Below, in pieces: positions 49,589-57,823 of a stretch of DNA of 64,000 nucleotides. The position numbers were made by a program, and so were the translations under genes. Within the stretch, counting starts at the first letter, position 1. Each line of letters begins with the position of its first letter. The notes beneath the pieces are model-generated. The model searched no databases and was not told where the DNA came from. It worked only from the letters and a program-made list of their open reading frames with translations. The stretch is from contig JBDRCT010000040.1 of assembly GCA_043821445.1 (NCBI GenBank), positions 26,745 through 90,744 on the forward strand, in the 5' to 3' direction. Source of the stretch: Candidatus Omnitrophota bacterium. GTDB lineage: Bacteria; Omnitrophota; Omnitrophia; Omnitrophales; Aquincolibacteriaceae.

Positions 49589-49848
49589 AAGCACGAGATC
49601 CTTCTCCGCCTTTGGCGGATCAGGATGACGGGAAGAGCAAAACGGACTGCGGGTTGATGGAGGAGGGCGGTGCCGTACTTGTTCCTTTGAACACGGTGCC
49701 GTCACTTTATTTGGAATGACGTGTACGGCGACCGTACGAAGAGAAGGGCTTGGGCCGCACCTTGGGCGGAACGACAGGCTGGAGACCCAATGAACACGAC
49801 CATGAAAAAACAACTTGCAAAGTTGCTTTTTCATGGTAGCATTTAGGT

Positions 49849-51012
49849 ATGATAAAGCGACAGGCGATCCTGAAACAGATACGCGCGGCTTTTCGCTATG
49901 GCCGTGTCGTGGCGATCCTGGGGCCCAGGCAGTGCGGTAAGACGACCCTGGCGCGGCAATTCGTTCCGCCTCATTCCGAAAACTATTTCGATCTCGAGGA
50001 TCCCGTAAGTCTCGCGCGTTTGTCGGAACCTATGACCGCCTTATCCGGCCTTCGCGGAACTGTGGTTCTCGATGAGGTCCAACTGGAGCCAAAGCTCTTC
50101 TCCGTCCTTCGCGTTTTAGCAGACCGGAAACCTCTTCCCGCACGGTTTTTGATCCTTGGCAGCGCGTCTCCGAGTCTCGTCAAGCATTCGGCCGAATCCT
50201 TGGCCGGGCGATTGGCCCGCGTTGAAATGGGAGGATTCTGTGTCAGGGAAGTGGGCTACAAGAACGACCTCAAGCTTTGGCTTCGCGGGGGATTCCCGCT
50301 CTCGTTCCTCGCCAAGACCGACGCGGACAGTTTTGCGTGGCGGAAAGATCTGATCATGAGTTTTATCGAAAAAGATCTTCCGGCTCATGGAATGTCACTG
50401 CCTCCCGTTACGCTTCTACGTTTTTGGACGATGCTCGCTCATTATCACGGCCAGATCTGGAACGCGGCGGAACCGGCGCGATCTCTCGGGATCAGCGAAA
50501 TGACCGTGAAGCGCTACCTGGATATACTGTCCGGACTTTTCCTGGTGCGTCAGTTGCAGCCCTGGCATGCTAATATCCAAAAAAGGCAAGTTAAAACCCC
50601 TAAAATATATATCCGGGATACCGGGATCCTGCATCAGTTGTTGGGGATTCGTACTAAGGAAGAGCTTCTCTCTCACCCAAAATGCGGCGCTTCCTGGGAA
50701 GGATTTGTGGTCGGTGAGGTGATCCGGTCCCTTCAACCCGATGAAGCTTTTTTTTGGGCGACCCATAACGGCGCCGAGCTCGAACTCATCATTAAAAAAG
50801 ACGGGAAGCTCTACGGGATCGAATGTAAACGCCGGGACGCGCCCGCCATGAGCGCATCGATGAAAATAGCACTGAAAGATCTAAGGCTGGAACGTATGGC
50901 TGTGATCTATCCCGGGACCCGGCGCTATCCTTTGTCCGGACAGGTCGAGGTCGTACCGTTTTCTTTTGTTCGAGGCGGGATGCGCGCTGTCTTTCCGCCG
51001 CACAAATCCTAG
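49849..51012 (+). CDS. COG1373-type AAA+ ATPase (AAA_14 + DUF4143), second copy
   Basis: Walker A ILGPRQCGKTT. C-terminal ELELII ... GIECKRR PD-(D/E)xK-like. TTGCAA ... TAGCAT promoter-like sequence immediately upstream. Confidence 0.75.
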   Translation: MIKRQAILKQIRAAFRYGRVVAILGPRQCGKTTLARQFVPPHSENYFDLEDPVSLARLSEPMTALSGLRGTVVLDEVQLEPKLFSVLRVLADRKPLPARFLILGSASPSLVKHSAESLAGRLARVEMGGFCVREVGYKNDLKLWLRGGFPLSFLAKTDADSFAWRKDLIMSFIEKDLPAHGMSLPPVTLLRFWTMLAHYHGQIWNAAEPARSLGISEMTVKRYLDILSGLFLVRQLQPWHANIQKRQVKTPKIYIRDTGILHQLLGIRTKEELLSHPKCGASWEGFVVGEVIRSLQPDEAFFWATHNGAELELIIKKDGKLYGIECKRRDAPAMSASMKIALKDLRLERMAVIYPGTRRYPLSGQVEVVPFSFVRGGMRAVFPPHKS

Positions 51013-51279: not shown

Positions 51280-53097
51280 TTGAACATTCTCGGGATCTCG
51301 GCTTTTTATCATGATAGCGCGGCGTGTCTCATCCGGGACGGAGAGATCGTGGCCGCGGCACAGGAAGAGCGTTTTACGCGCAAAAAGCATGATTTCTCGT
51401 TCCCGAAGCATGCCATCGACTGTTGCCTTAAAAAAGGCGGTATCGAAGCCTCCGGCCTCGATTGTGTCGCATTTTATGATAAGCCCTTCATCAAATTCGA
51501 GCGCATCCTCGAGACCTATCTCGCTTACGCCCCGCATGGCATCGCGTCCTTTCTTATGGCCATGCCTCTTTGGATCAAACAGAAGCTCTGGATGAAGGAT
51601 TACATCCAGACCGAGCTTGGTTTCGAAGGGAAGATCATTTTTCCGGAACACCGTGAGTCGCATGCCGCCTCGGCGTTCTTTCCGTCGCCTTTTGAGGAAG
51701 CCGCGTTCCTTACCATGGACGGCGTGGGGGAATGGGCGACCACCAGTTACGGCGTGGGGAAAGGCAATAAGATCGAGATCCTCGCAGAGATCAAATTCCC
51801 GCATTCGCTCGGCCTCCTTTACTCCGCTTTCACTTATTATACGGGCTTTAAGGTCAATTCCGGGGAATACAAGGTCATGGGCCTCGCCCCCTACGGCAAG
51901 CCGGTGTACAAAGACCTGATCCTGAAAGAATTGATCGATCTGAAAGAGGACGGTTCGTTCAAGCTCAACATGAAATATTTCGATTATTGCGCCGGACTCC
52001 GCATGACGAACAGCCGCTTTCATAAGCTCTTTGGCGCGCCTCCGCGAAAGCCCGAATCCCGCGTCGCACAGCGCGAAATGGACCTCGCGCGTTCCATCCA
52101 GGAAGTGACTGAGGAAGTCATGCTCCGGATCACGCGCCAGGTCCACAAAGTGACGGGGCAGAAGAACCTTTGTCTTGCCGGAGGCGTGGCCCTGAACTGC
52201 GTCGGGAACGGCCGCATTCTTCGCGAAGGCCCGTTCGAGCATATCTGGATCCAGCCGGCTTCAGGTGACGCCGGCGGAGCCGTGGGGGCGGCTTATTTCG
52301 GCTGGTATCAGTATCTTGGAAAAACGAGGGCCGCGAACGGGAAAACGGACAGCATGCAAGGTTCTTATTTGGGGCCGGAGTTCTCAGACACCGAGATCGT
52401 GGAATTCTTGTCGAGGCACGGGATCCCGTTCACCCGTCTCCCGGATAAAGAACTCCCGGAGAAGATCGCGGACCTGGTCGCGCAGGAGAAAGTGATCGGA
52501 TGGTTCGAGGGCGCGATGGAGTTCGGACCCCGGGCACTCGGCGGCCGCTCCATTCTCGGGGACCCGCGTTCGCCCAAGATGCAGGAACAAATGAATCTCA
52601 AGATCAAATTCCGCGAAAGTTTCCGCCCGTTCGCCCCTTCGATCACGGCCGAGAAGGTCTCGGACTATTTCGAAATGAAATCGGAGAGTCCTTATATGCT
52701 CCTGGTCGCGCCGGTCCAAAAAAAATGGCGCCGGGAGATGACAGAAGATGAGAAAAAACTTGAAGGGATCGAACTCCTGAACGTGAAGCGGTCTACGATC
52801 CCGGCCGTCACGCATGTCGACTATTCTGCGCGCGTTCAAACGATCACCGAGACGCAGCACCCAAGGTTCTACCAGCTTCTTAAGAAATTCGACGAAAGGC
52901 ACGGCTGCCCGGTCCTGATCAACACTTCGTTCAATGTGCGGGGAGAACCGATCGTCTGCACGCCCGAAGACGCCTTCCGGTGTTTCATGCGCACGCACAT
53001 GGATTATTTGATCCTTGGGAACTATCTGCTCGACAAGAAAGAGCAGAAGCCTCTTGAAAAGGACAGTGCCTGGATGAAGGAGTTTGAACTGGACTAA
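51280..53097 (+). CDS. carbamoyltransferase, NodU/CmcH family
   Basis: TTG start. NILGISAFYHDSAACLIRDGEIVAAAQEERFTRKKHD is the canonical NodU N-terminus. 605 aa. Confidence 0.88.
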   Translation: MNILGISAFYHDSAACLIRDGEIVAAAQEERFTRKKHDFSFPKHAIDCCLKKGGIEASGLDCVAFYDKPFIKFERILETYLAYAPHGIASFLMAMPLWIKQKLWMKDYIQTELGFEGKIIFPEHRESHAASAFFPSPFEEAAFLTMDGVGEWATTSYGVGKGNKIEILAEIKFPHSLGLLYSAFTYYTGFKVNSGEYKVMGLAPYGKPVYKDLILKELIDLKEDGSFKLNMKYFDYCAGLRMTNSRFHKLFGAPPRKPESRVAQREMDLARSIQEVTEEVMLRITRQVHKVTGQKNLCLAGGVALNCVGNGRILREGPFEHIWIQPASGDAGGAVGAAYFGWYQYLGKTRAANGKTDSMQGSYLGPEFSDTEIVEFLSRHGIPFTRLPDKELPEKIADLVAQEKVIGWFEGAMEFGPRALGGRSILGDPRSPKMQEQMNLKIKFRESFRPFAPSITAEKVSDYFEMKSESPYMLLVAPVQKKWRREMTEDEKKLEGIELLNVKRSTIPAVTHVDYSARVQTITETQHPRFYQLLKKFDERHGCPVLINTSFNVRGEPIVCTPEDAFRCFMRTHMDYLILGNYLLDKKEQKPLEKDSAWMKEFELD

Positions 53098-53101
53098 CCG
53101 A

Positions 53102-53183
53102 GTGTCAGCGTATCAAAGTATCAATGTGTCAAAGATCCAAATCTGAAATCCTGACACTCTGACACCTTGACACTATGACACTT
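53102..53183. repeat. dyad-symmetric pair of tandem 8-mer arrays: (GTRTCANN)x4, an 18-nt spacer, then (TGACACNN)x4
   Basis: gtgtcagc gtatcaaa gtatcaat gtgtcaaa | gatccaaatctgaaatcc | tgacactc tgacacct tgacacta tgacactt. Confidence 0.85.
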
Positions 53184-53198
53184 TCAATAAGGATTTAA

Positions 53199-53618
53199 AT
53201 GAGTATCGTTAAAGAAATAAAAAAGATTGAGTCGAGCAGGAAAAAGCTCCGCGAATTCGGTTTCGTGGTCGGGGGAGTCCTGTGCGTGCTGGGGATCCTT
53301 TTTTACTGGCGGGGGCGGGGGAGTTTCCCGTATTTTCTTGTGCCCGGGATCTTCCTTGTTATTGCGGGAGCCATCATCCCTTCGATCCTGAAGCCTGTCC
53401 AAAAGGCATGGATGACGCTCGCGGTCCTGATGGGTTGGGTCATGACGCGCGTGTTACTTTCCCTCCTTTTCTATCTCGCGATCACACCGATCGGGCTCAT
53501 CTTGCGCCTTATGGGAAAAGACCTCCTGGACGAGAGGCTTGATCCCAAAAAGCAAAGTCACTGGAAGATCCGGCCGCAAGACACGCGCGTTCCGAGCGAC
53601 TACGAAAAGCAGTTTTGA
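53199..53618 (+). CDS. SxtJ-like small membrane protein
   Basis: 139 aa with 3 TM helices. Position immediately after the carbamoyltransferase matches the conserved NodU-SxtJ-DUF5989 neighbourhood. Confidence 0.55.
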   Translation: MSIVKEIKKIESSRKKLREFGFVVGGVLCVLGILFYWRGRGSFPYFLVPGIFLVIAGAIIPSILKPVQKAWMTLAVLMGWVMTRVLLSLLFYLAITPIGLILRLMGKDLLDERLDPKKQSHWKIRPQDTRVPSDYEKQF

Positions 53619-53726
53619 GTTTTTCATTCCAGCCTCAGGCGGCATCTGCTAGTATATCCGCCAATTGCGGTGTCTTTAATAACGGAAGCGCGTCAGAGAG
53701 CGCCTTCTATCACTCACGGGGGAACT

Positions 53727-53885
53727 ATGGGCAAATTAGGGATTTTGAAGGAGTTCTTGGATTTTCTGAAAGTTCGCAAAAAATGGTGGCTCACCCCGAT
53801 CGTCGTGGTCATGGTCCTTTTGGGTGCCTTGATCGTGTTTTCACAAGGGTCCACAGTGGCGCCTTTCATCTACACCCTTTTTTAA
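53727..53885 (+). CDS. DUF5989-family small membrane protein (SxtK-like)
   Basis: MGKLGILKEFLDFLKVRKKWWLTPIVVVMVLLGALIVFSQGSTVAPFIYTLF. Internal ATG 53727 with a GGGGGAA SD. The track start at 53670 is probably too far upstream. Confidence 0.6.
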   Translation: MGKLGILKEFLDFLKVRKKWWLTPIVVVMVLLGALIVFSQGSTVAPFIYTLF

Positions 53886-53891
53886 CAGCGC

Positions 53892-55055
53892 ATGCCGTTC
53901 TATCCTTTCAAAAGCCGGTGGAAACGGATAGCGGCCGGATGTTTCGACGCGGTCGGCCGGATCTGTTTCATCCCTTGGAAGTCGCTCCGGAAGCCCTTGG
54001 ACCTTGCGGCGGTGCGGCGCATCCTTGTGGTCCGCCTGGACCATATCGGCGATGTCGTCATGTCCCGGCCGATGATCCGGGCCCTGCATAAGAAATTCCC
54101 GCACGCGGAGATCGATCTTCTTGTGACCGAAGATATCGCGCCGCTTTTCGCATTTTCCAAAGAGATCCGGACCGTGATCACGGCCCAACACGGATGGTTC
54201 ATGCGCAGGGCTTCTTTTCTCCTAAAGTGGTCCGAGTTCTGGCGTCTTGTCAGGATCTTAAAAACTACGCCGTATGACATGGGGTTCGATCCGCGCGGGG
54301 ATCTCCGGAATATCCTTTTAATGTTTTTGGCCGGTGTCCGGTACACGGTCGGTTATGGGATCACAAGCGGCGGATTTTTGCTGAACGAAGAGATCCCGCA
54401 TGACGCCTCCCGGCATCAGGTGGAGCTCAACATGTGCCTTTTAAATTCATTCCACATCGCACAGGATAACAAGCTTCTGCCATTCGAATATTCCTCCGAG
54501 AGGGCGCGTGAATTCTGGAAGAAAACCGGAGTGCTGCCGCTCACGACCCTCTTGCCGCGCGTCGCGATCCATATGGGGTCCGGATATCCGTCCAAACGCT
54601 GGCCGCCCGAGAACTTCAAGGCGCTTATCCAGCAGATCGACAAGGAAGCGCTCGCCCAGATCGTGCTGGTCGGGACGAAGGCCGAGAAGGACGCGGCCCC
54701 GGACCTCAAACTGAACTCGGAGCGTCTTATCGATCTGCGGGGCAAAACGGCCCTGCAGGATCTTCCGGTCCTCATGGATGTGTGCGATGTTTTTATCGGG
54801 AACGATTCAGGGCCGGCGCATATCGCCGCAGCCCAGGGACTGGAGATCATTTTGCTGGTAAGCGGCACGAACGACATCCATCTCTGGCATCCTTGGACCG
54901 AACGGTTGTGCTTTCTCCAACACGAAGTTCCGTGTTCACCGTGCGGATTTGAGAACTGTCCGGTCGAAGGCCATCCCTGCGTGGATGAGATCACGGTCGA
55001 TCAAGCTTTTGACGCGTTCCTTTCGGTCCTCGGCCGCCTTCAGAAGCGATCTTAG
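53892..55055 (+). CDS. GT9 glycosyltransferase (ADP-heptose:LPS heptosyltransferase family)
   Basis: ILVVRLDHIGDVVMSRP is the GT9 N-terminal motif. GNDSGPAHIAAA C-terminal motif. Confidence 0.8.
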   Translation: MPFYPFKSRWKRIAAGCFDAVGRICFIPWKSLRKPLDLAAVRRILVVRLDHIGDVVMSRPMIRALHKKFPHAEIDLLVTEDIAPLFAFSKEIRTVITAQHGWFMRRASFLLKWSEFWRLVRILKTTPYDMGFDPRGDLRNILLMFLAGVRYTVGYGITSGGFLLNEEIPHDASRHQVELNMCLLNSFHIAQDNKLLPFEYSSERAREFWKKTGVLPLTTLLPRVAIHMGSGYPSKRWPPENFKALIQQIDKEALAQIVLVGTKAEKDAAPDLKLNSERLIDLRGKTALQDLPVLMDVCDVFIGNDSGPAHIAAAQGLEIILLVSGTNDIHLWHPWTERLCFLQHEVPCSPCGFENCPVEGHPCVDEITVDQAFDAFLSVLGRLQKRS

Positions 55056-56663: not shown

Positions 56664-56726
56664 GTAACATCCTGCAACTTTTTTGCGTAACTTTTCTTTG
56701 TGTAACCTATGGTAACCTTCTGTAAC
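56664..56726. promoter_or_regulatory. five GTAAC motifs (reverse complement of GTTAC), the last three at an exact 10-bp period, ending 2 nt before the ATG of the GT4 gene
   Basis: cGTAACatcctgcaacttttttgcGTAACttttctttgtGTAACctatgGTAACcttctGTAACtcATG. Confidence 0.6.
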
Positions 56727-56728
56727 TC

Positions 56729-57823
56729 ATGCTAAAGATCGCTCTGGTCCATGATTGGCTCATTCATATGCGCGGCGGCGAGAAGGTCCTGGACGCCTTG
56801 GCCGAACTTTATCCGGAGGCCACACTTTACACGCTGTTCATTGACCGGAAAAAGATAAGCCCGAACCTTTCACGGCTCAGGACCAAGGCCTCGTTCCTGC
56901 AATATTTTCCGGGCATCAAGTTCTACTACCGGTGGCTTCTCCCGATCCTGCCCTGGGCGATCCGTTCCCTGAAAATCGAGGAGGCGGACCTGGTGATCTC
57001 AAGCTCCCACTGCGTCGCGAAAGGCATCCGTGTCCCCGCAAACGCTTTCCATGTCTGCTACTGCCATACGCCGATGCGCTATCTTTGGGGGTTCCAGGAC
57101 GCCTATTTCAAGCGCTATCTGTCACCGGTCCGGCTGCTCATCAATGGCGTATTCCATTTCCTCAAAAAATGGGACCTGGGGACCAACGAGCGGGTGGACC
57201 TTTTCGTCGCGAATTCCGAATATATCAGAAAGCGCATCAAAACGGTCTACGGGTGCGACGCCGTGGTCGTCCATCCGCCGCTTGAGACGGACTTCTTCAA
57301 GCCCGTGGGCACTCCGGAGAATTTTTTTCTTGCAGTTTCACACTTTGTTCCGTATAAAAGACTTGACCTGGTGATCGAGGCTTTTAACGGCCTGGAACGG
57401 CGGCTGGTCGTGATCGGGTCCGGTCCTCTGGCGTCCCAATATCAAAAACTCCGGAAAAGCGACCGGATATCCTTCTGGGGCGGCGTGAGCGATGACGAGC
57501 TTCGCAAGGCCTACTCGGAAGCGAAGGCGCTTGTCTTTCCGACGGAGGAAGATTTCGGGATCGTGCCGCTGGAGGCCCAGGCCTGCGGCACGCCGGTGAT
57601 CGCGTTCCGGAGAGGCGGGGCACTGGAAACAGTGAAAAGCGGTGTTTTTTTTGATGAACAGACCCCGGAAGCCGTTCGCGAGGCCGTGCTGCGGTTCGAG
57701 GGACAGAGCTTCGACCGCGGAGAGGTTTCCGGAAAAGTGCAGGGGTTCGGACGAAAGCATTTCCTAGAAAATATGAAAAAAACCATCGACGAACATTACG
57801 CGAAGAAGGTTGTGCCGTCATGA
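56729..57823 (+). CDS. GT4 (group-1) glycosyltransferase
   Basis: EDFGIVPLEAQACGTPVI E-x7-E motif. 364 aa. Confidence 0.8.
   Translation: MLKIALVHDWLIHMRGGEKVLDALAELYPEATLYTLFIDRKKISPNLSRLRTKASFLQYFPGIKFYYRWLLPILPWAIRSLKIEEADLVISSSHCVAKGIRVPANAFHVCYCHTPMRYLWGFQDAYFKRYLSPVRLLINGVFHFLKKWDLGTNERVDLFVANSEYIRKRIKTVYGCDAVVVHPPLETDFFKPVGTPENFFLAVSHFVPYKRLDLVIEAFNGLERRLVVIGSGPLASQYQKLRKSDRISFWGGVSDDELRKAYSEAKALVFPTEEDFGIVPLEAQACGTPVIAFRRGGALETVKSGVFFDEQTPEAVREAVLRFEGQSFDRGEVSGKVQGFGRKHFLENMKKTIDEHYAKKVVPS

Follow-up and report, generated by a model that had tools for sequence, protein, structure and literature searches.

An inverted pair of tandem octamer arrays between the carbamoyltransferase and SxtJ-like genes of a Candidatus Omnitrophota bacterium: a candidate intercistronic stem-loop of recent origin

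The window analysed here is a 64-kb stretch of DNA from a Candidatus Omnitrophota MAG, to one of whose proteins the carbamoyltransferase encoded in it is 100% identical. Exact look-ups of this protein and of the SxtJ-like protein gave no entry. A + strand run of glycosyltransferase genes in the window contains a carbamoyltransferase gene (Carbam_trans_N/C matches with E values of 3e-102 and 7e-75), followed by a gene for an SxtJ-family small membrane protein (SxtJ match, E = 1.2e-10) and a small SxtK-like gene (DUF5989, E = 3e-25), the last of which completes the conserved carbamoyltransferase-SxtJ-DUF5989 set. The 101-nt gap between the carbamoyltransferase and SxtJ-like genes wholly contains two arrays of 8-nt units in inverted arrangement, referred to below as the dyad. 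It is separated by 4 nt from the carbamoyltransferase stop codon and by 15 nt from the SxtJ-like ATG. Direct reading of the sequence confirmed every coordinate and distance in the original prediction of this feature, with the arrays exact to the base. The features of the locus are as follows.

51280..53097, + strand: carbamoyltransferase, upstream gene, 605 aa, with stop codon TAA at 53095-53097
53102..53133, + strand: left arm, units GTGTCAGC GTATCAAA GTATCAAT GTGTCAAA, each a GTRTCA core plus two variable nt
53134..53151, no strand: centre, hairpin loop region, GATCCAAATCTGAAATCC, 18 nt
53152..53183, + strand: right arm, units TGACACTC TGACACCT TGACACTA TGACACTT
53189..53193, + strand: Shine-Dalgarno sequence AAGGA for SxtJ-like translation, 5 nt past the last unit and not part of the stem
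53199..53618, + strand: SxtJ-family small membrane protein, downstream gene, 139 aa, with ATG at 53199
53670..53885, + strand: DUF5989 (SxtK-like) small gene

A mechanical ORF at 53615-54091 (158 aa) has no Pfam match and overlaps the GT9 gene; the true gene near this position is the DUF5989 ORF at 53670-53885, of 71 aa or slightly longer.

By direct reading, the 82-nt dyad consists of four GTRTCANN units, an 18-nt centre and four TGACACNN units, the right-arm core being the exact reverse complement of GTGTCA. Read in the 8-nt frame, the centre is GATCCAAA / TCTGAAAT / CC and by appearance looks like one decayed unit per arm; in the RNA folds of both strands it is a loop with a small internal helix. 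Across the eight units, the core changes at 2 of 48 positions, both times from GTGTCA to GTATCA, versus 8 of 16 positions in the 2-nt spacer (Fisher p = 1e-4, or 8e-4 allowing for eight registers), and decay is greatest in the innermost units, those that would fall in the loop. Uniform neutral decay fails to predict such a contrast; selection acting on the sequence of the cores or on their pairing does predict it. A weaker concentration of variation in particular columns is general in such arrays, with 23% of 48 unselected arrays reaching p < 0.05. The notion that the unbroken 8-nt frame betrays a once-perfect palindrome of ten units holds in the window and fails in five comparable dyads from other genomes (L103, L107, L165, L174 and L199); it was given little weight.

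Counts in the window were compared with shuffled controls. The sequence GTRTCANNGTRTCA with at most one mismatch gave six matches, all in the dyad, versus 0.39 expected, and TGACACNNTGACAC with at most two mismatches gave eight matches versus 2.08 expected; none of 100 shuffles reached six or eight, respectively, which excludes a chance origin of the dyad. Tandem Repeats Finder reported both arms as period-8 arrays and no others of that period in the 64 kb, while pattern and inverted-repeat scans of the window revealed no second copy of the dyad or related long inverted repeat. The window holds about 3 arrays per 100 kb, accounted for by the two dyad arms alone, versus about 2 in the shuffled control and 56 in loci selected by pattern; as sampled by these 64 kb, the genome is not array-rich. 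No target-site duplication was found at the dyad, whose flanks are CCGA and TCAA, and no terminal signature was seen there. Outside the dyad, GTGTCA occurs 7 times and TGACAC 5 times, versus about 17 and 14 expected, and the two are unskewed, a result that speaks against these hexamers being a scattered polar signal or the sites of a regulon. A polar octamer of the Chi or KOPS kind was rejected on the same counts.

Folding of the + strand RNA gave a minimum of -26.9 kcal/mol (z = -4.2; none of 200 shuffles was as good) and a single hairpin, in which small internal loops interrupt a series of 6-bp core helices. This hairpin remains an independent module in its 221-nt context. The - strand RNA folds at -43.7 kcal/mol (z = -7.65) and the single-stranded DNA at -13.8 kcal/mol (z = -3.0). 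The 34 arm positions in register comprise 24 Watson-Crick pairs, 6 A.C oppositions, 1 G.U pair and 3 others, and the - strand folds better because the six A.C oppositions of the + strand turn into G.U pairs on the - strand. A slipped-register ("sliding") hairpin was rejected, since a single register was present in all suboptimal folds within 5 kcal/mol. Of the two structures originally proposed, the long imperfect hairpin is thus borne out by the RNA folds of both strands and in the 221-nt context, whereas extrusion of a cruciform is unlikely, because the arms are about 71% Watson-Crick, the centre is 18 nt long and the DNA fold reaches only -13.8 kcal/mol. A permissive E-value scan of Rfam returned no family at the gathering threshold; the best match, on the - strand, was a plant miRNA-precursor model that scored 26 bits (gathering score, 100), and is generic long-hairpin noise. 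No promoter-like site was found at the dyad by a promoter scan, and an internal promoter built on TTGACA at 53167-53172 in the right arm was rejected, as this hexamer is without a matching -10 element and lies too near the ATG.

To place the dyad in an evolutionary context, 81 orthologous loci (L001-L081) were collected, 71 of which hold both the carbamoyltransferase and SxtJ genes. The junction is at most 17 nt long in 50 of these 71 loci, mostly 0-8 nt, and the closest relatives found have gaps of 7, 8 and 11 nt at 95%, 93% and 92% carbamoyltransferase identity, respectively. In alignment, the coding sequence on both sides is collinear, with the spacer standing out as a clean indel. From these short gaps and this alignment, the dyad is a recent, lineage-specific insertion in the Candidatus Omnitrophota MAG and not a conserved cis element of SxtJ genes. 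The junction is ancestrally tight, at 0-11 nt, and the two genes were probably coupled in translation. The original prediction had also suggested an RNA element regulating the small membrane-protein genes downstream, and had named absence from orthologous loci as the finding that would speak against it; the dyad is indeed absent from them, and that suggestion is not supported. For annotation, such dyads are not to be read as conserved operators or riboregulators. The comparison shows that a tandem-octamer hairpin can arise within a species-level time span inside a tightly coupled operon junction.

Two other orthologous loci, L003 (4819-4885) and L013 (4819-4892), have homologous spacers at about 90% protein identity, the former with a single AACGGCT and the latter with three ACGGCNA units, an apparent snapshot of in-situ array expansion.

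Expanded junctions elsewhere usually hold a strong hairpin that is unrelated in sequence to the dyad. GC-rich perfect palindromes occupy the junction in L015 (2328-2407) and L016, and a GTCATTGCGAG...CTCGCAATGAC palindrome, which looks like a REP-like dispersed element, occupies it in two unrelated metagenome contigs (L028, 4819-4916; L043, 4643-4785). Tandem 7-8-mer dyads built from other units are found at the junction in at least four loci, and partly in L055 and L059. The four are as follows.

L012, 4822-4931: junction dyad, unit GCRCAACG
L013, 4819-4892: junction dyad, unit ACGGCNA
L058, 4816-4898: junction dyad, unit GCCNGTTN
L061, 4816-4900: junction dyad, unit CTGGTTN

Among the 20 junctions of at least 30 nt (19 orthologous loci plus the window, with L075 and L077 duplicates), 14 (70%) fold with z < -3, versus 6 of 92 (6.5%) other co-directional gaps of 30-300 nt in the same loci (Mann-Whitney p = 3e-7). 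Hairpins have thus been acquired repeatedly and independently at the carbamoyltransferase-SxtJ junction, and this is the most useful lead to come from the analysis. Two readings of the statistic are possible: a hairpin may be favoured at this junction, or the figure may partly reflect an ancestrally tight junction that grows solely by palindromic insertions. With its many unrelated hairpin gains, the junction offers a natural comparative system. The units GCTGGTTG and CTGGTTK of L059 (4817-4856) and L061 (4823-4847) lie one base from E. coli Chi (GCTGGTGG), a likeness that is probably coincidence.

A scan for TGACACNNTGACACNNTGACAC, using one genome per species, returned at least 119 stretches from very diverse taxa. 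Of the 125 arrays among the matches listed, 15 lie no more than 150 nt from an inverted GTRTCA partner, and GTRTCA/TGACAC dyads occur in Nitrospinota, Desantisbacteria, Anaerolineae, Bacteroidales and other Omnitrophota. The closest look-alikes among these matches are the following.

Nitrospinota: L165, L107, L126, L174
Uncultured bacterium: L103
Desantisbacteria: L096, L114
Anaerolineae: L199
Omnitrophota: L102 (opposite order)

L165 is a close mirror of the window dyad: on its left side, a stop codon is followed after 2 nt by GTGTCAAA GTAACAAA GTATCAAA and then by 14 nt, and on its right side TGACACTC TGACACTT TGACACTT precede the ribosome-binding site (RBS) and ATG. Among the unique dyads in the matches listed, about 11 read GTRTCA...TGACAC and 2 read TGACAC...GTRTCA, a bias that the duplex leaves unexplained, as both orders yield the same one. 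The two Desantisbacteria copies, L096 and L114, share their loop sequence, which points to copying within some genomes; on the strength of this shared internal sequence, related elements may be mobile elsewhere. Viral contigs contributed 31 arrays, two of them with inverted partners. In the 125 arrays listed, one-sided TGACAC arrays are oriented 34 versus 34 at gene starts and 20 versus 23 at gene ends; in one case from Omnitrophota (L147), a one-sided TGACACTT array lies directly before an RBS.

Several other arrangements of these units were noted. In six Bacteroidales / Prevotellaceae MAGs (L098, L109, L139, L110, L164 and L084), a conserved element of about 170-210 nt consists, in order, of GTGTCAAA arrays, an AT-rich perfect palindrome (CACTATATA...TATATAGTG) and TGACACCN arrays, and looks like a distinct dispersed family in gut Bacteroidales. 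In Segatella copri (L082, L086 and L091), arrays of three TGACACNN units abut a conserved GTTTTTCAACTTTTCGCCTCGC... sequence while the left flanks differ, as a mobile or integrative element would be expected to leave them at its end. In the Nitrospinota MAG locus L107 (830-1066), a tRNA gene lies between a AGTCTAAG/ACTTTTAG dyad and a GTRTCA/TGACAC dyad.

A census of tandem 6-10-mers in the window and 200 loci (1.4 Mb), performed with Tandem Repeats Finder and a script, yielded 629 arrays of period 6-10 and 36 dyads. Their units vary widely, a single genome often has several dyads, and L173 alone contains three types of unit. With the window dyad added, 21 of the resulting 37 sit in gaps separating co-directional genes; such a dyad usually fills its gap, typically leaving a few nt to the stop codon on one side and to the next start on the other. 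As many different units appear in one architecture, the class is defined by architecture and not by sequence. The window dyad can be assigned with high confidence to palindromic tandem-octamer insertions of the STRR/LSSR kind, and the tandem-repeat hairpin architecture is present in Omnitrophota as well as in a number of further phyla that have been little studied.

[quoted passage not shown] Nostoc units include TTGTCAG and CTGACTA, with 11-79 occurrences per conserved intergenic sequence (PMC2408588, Table 3). Like the STRRs, the dyad has at least three head-to-tail units and a complementary array in an intercistronic operon gap and can form a hairpin, and Nostoc STRR units share with it a TGTCA/TGACA-like core. 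It differs in having a unit of 8 and not 7 nt, in its host, which belongs to Omnitrophota and is not a filamentous cyanobacterium, and in being single-copy in 64 kb, whereas STRRs number from tens to about a hundred per genome. In the strict sense, STRRs as described by Mazel and colleagues in 1990 are said to have a heptamer unit and a cyanobacterial host, reportedly at about 100 copies per genome. Cyanobacterial 7-8-nt repeat hairpins have been noted since 1990, and the dyad extends the architecture to Omnitrophota.

Long simple sequence repeats (LSSRs) of 5-11 nt are phylogenetically scattered, with heptamers the commonest, and have been attributed to slippage (Mrazek 2007, as summarised in PMC4679880). 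Among them, direct repeats of the heptamer TAACTGA occur in Beggiatoaceae, cyanobacteria and Bacteroidetes (MacGregor 2015, PMC4679880); those of Beggiatoaceae lie a few nt before start codons and have been proposed as RNA-binding-protein sites with a role in translation, and the BOGUAY genome has 169 direct sets and 1 indirect set (PMC4679880). Heptamer repeats near Nostoc recF and recO alter expression in reporter assays (bioRxiv 10.1101/2022.06.06.494920). The dyad resembles the LSSRs and TAACTGA repeats as a short-unit tandem array that is intergenic, near a start codon and of a kind scattered across phyla. TAACTGA repeats are almost all direct, stand in forward orientation before starts and replace the RBS, whereas the dyad is an inverted pair with a separate RBS, and TGACAC arrays show no orientation bias.

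Other known elements are more distant. REP elements are operon-internal palindromes, which in the classic cases stabilise the upstream mRNA against 3' exonucleases. Like REP, BIME and REPIN elements (REPINs are described in PMC3116915), the dyad is a small imperfect palindrome of the sort that colonises gaps within and after operons, but REP arms are without internal tandem repeats, and REPs are highly multi-copy palindromes of 20-40 nt, paired as inverted doublets and tied to a RAYT transposase, whereas the arms of the dyad are internally periodic and the dyad is single-copy in 64 kb. The absence of a target-site duplication and of a second copy in the window sets the dyad apart from MITEs. 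The repeats described for Thiomargarita are MITEs and not tandem-unit hairpins. MetJ metboxes (tandem 8-bp), omega heptads and ParG boxes are tandem 7-8-bp operators of ribbon-helix-helix proteins. The dyad resembles such operators in its 8-bp period, its conserved core with variable positions and its direct and inverted units; they, however, lie at promoters or centromeres, near the gene of the binding protein or in its regulon, and are conserved, whereas the dyad is intercistronic, has no promoter-like site and is not conserved, being absent from 50 of 71 orthologous junctions, the closest included.

The reading we tentatively prefer, at a probability of roughly 0.45, is that the dyad acts as an intercistronic RNA stem-loop that uncouples the carbamoyltransferase from SxtJ/DUF5989 and modulates mRNA stability or processing. 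In the proposed mechanism, transcription of the polysaccharide operon would produce an 82-nt imperfect stem-loop of 6-bp helices and small internal loops, located directly past the carbamoyltransferase stop codon and leaving the SxtJ Shine-Dalgarno sequence free. The stem-loop could then serve as a barrier to 3' exonucleases or as a processing site, so that the message for the upstream enzyme and that for the downstream membrane proteins would meet different fates, and translational coupling would be replaced by independent initiation at the new AAGGA site. We infer such an action at the RNA level, and its effect, from the insertion of the dyad, the class to which it belongs, the junction hot spot, the constraint on the core, the independence of the hairpin as a module, its single register and the STRR precedent. 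Counted against it are the energies of the window dyad, whose antisense fold (-43.7 kcal/mol) is far better than the sense fold (-26.9 kcal/mol), and the pairing in 22 intercistronic dyads in sense orientation, where G.U pairs do not exceed A.C oppositions (31 versus 28). The better-folding strand is sense in 10 of these 22 dyads and antisense in 11, which together with the G.U and A.C counts leaves no RNA-level signature of selection on the sense transcript; the strand counts also led us to reject an antisense-strand RNA as a general rule. The one-sided TGACAC arrays among the matches listed likewise speak against it in showing no orientation preference at starts or ends, and an insertion bias may partly lie behind the hot-spot statistic.

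The main rival, a serious one though less probable than the preferred reading, is that the dyad is a neutral or selfish by-product: slippage expands an octamer, a template-switch inverted duplication or a small mobile palindrome gives the second arm, and the outcome is merely tolerated. The dyad is absent from every close relative, the 22 dyads have no sense-strand wobble excess and the arrays among the matches listed are unoriented relative to genes, all of which are consistent with such an origin. So are the shared loop of the Desantisbacteria copies, which indicates copy-and-paste in some genomes, the apparent in-situ expansion of the ACGGCNA unit between L003 and L013, and the published view that repeats of 5-11 nt arise by slippage of the polymerase (Mrazek 2007, as summarised in PMC4679880). 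Neutral decay, however, should strike cores and spacers equally, and the observed 2/48 versus 8/16 (p = 1e-4) is at odds with this. The two arms also account for all the arrays in the window, where shuffled sequence has about 2 per 100 kb; neither a second copy in the window nor a target-site duplication or terminal signature was seen, and hairpins are specifically enriched at the carbamoyltransferase-SxtJ junction. An intrinsic (Rho-independent) terminator or attenuator after the carbamoyltransferase gene would account for a significant stem-loop directly past the stop codon, but is very improbable. The long stem is interrupted and rich in A+U, its centre measures 18 nt, and it is followed by no more than three T (UUU); a terminator scan of 52600-53700 flagged nothing at the dyad, in agreement with the initial view that this is not a standard intrinsic terminator. 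Moreover, essential partner genes (SxtJ, DUF5989 and the glycosyltransferases) lie downstream on the same strand with no promoter-like site.

Two further readings involve a binding protein. Tandem 7-8-bp operators are an established mode of protein binding, and by analogy with such precedents the eight GTRTCA hexamers at 8-bp spacing, four in each orientation, could form a double-stranded DNA site bound cooperatively by a small dimeric protein or a transposase, to which we assign a small chance. This corresponds to the eight phased half-sites of the original prediction, a proposal that is weakened but has points in its favour: the core is conserved with variable 2-nt spacers, GTRTCA is found again as a core in Nitrospinota, Desantisbacteria, Anaerolineae and Bacteroidales, and the same head-to-head order prevails in other phyla, by about 11 to 2 among the unique dyads listed, though the duplex is identical either way. 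Its setting fits poorly, as the dyad is placed within an operon, after a stop codon and before a ribosome-binding site, where the scan found no promoter-like site, the 64 kb contain no other site and under-represent the hexamers, the orthologues do not conserve it, and unrelated units occupy the same junction in other lineages and coexist within single genomes. The alternative at the level of single-stranded RNA, in which a protein such as S1, Csp or a CsrA-like protein would land on the UGACAC array near the start of SxtJ and the GURUCA array would mask that array, seems quite improbable. It can draw on the TAACTGA repeats upstream of Beggiatoaceae starts, with their proposed role in translation (PMC4679880), and on the one-sided array before the RBS in L147. 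Yet the 125 arrays listed have no forward-orientation preference before starts (34 versus 34), SxtJ has its own canonical AAGGA outside the array, and the unrelated hairpins at the same junction are left unexplained. Given the core conservation and orientation bias, the DNA and RNA versions of a protein-binding array jointly retain a low probability.

Beyond the locus itself, the GTRTCA-octamer dyads might be one family in a widespread, undescribed class of tandem-unit palindromes with a dedicated mechanism of generation or spread, protein-recognised cores and repeated recruitment to particular operon junctions such as carbamoyltransferase-SxtJ, a proposal we consider improbable. It would take in Omnitrophota, Nitrospinota, Desantisbacteria, Anaerolineae, Planctomycetota and Bacteroidales. 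The 11:2 order, the contrast between core and spacer and the enrichment of hairpins at the junction fit this proposal, and simple slippage fails to explain them. If it were true, recruited dyads would set the relative expression of neighbouring genes.

Two other parts of the cluster contain short repeats. At 49799-49837, a near-perfect 18-nt palindrome with a 3-nt loop (ACCATGAAAAAACAACTT gca AAGTTGCTTTTTCATGGT) ends 11 nt before a DUF4143/AAA_14 ATPase gene (49849-51012). This gene is missing between the GT2 and carbamoyltransferase genes in the relatives L001, L232 and L233, and is therefore a second lineage-specific insertion in the cluster. At 56664-56728, five GTAAC motifs lie upstream of a glycosyltransferase start at 56729, the last three at 10-nt spacing (GTAACCTATG GTAACCTTCT GTAACTCATG); these could be phased direct-repeat binding sites or a short tandem array.
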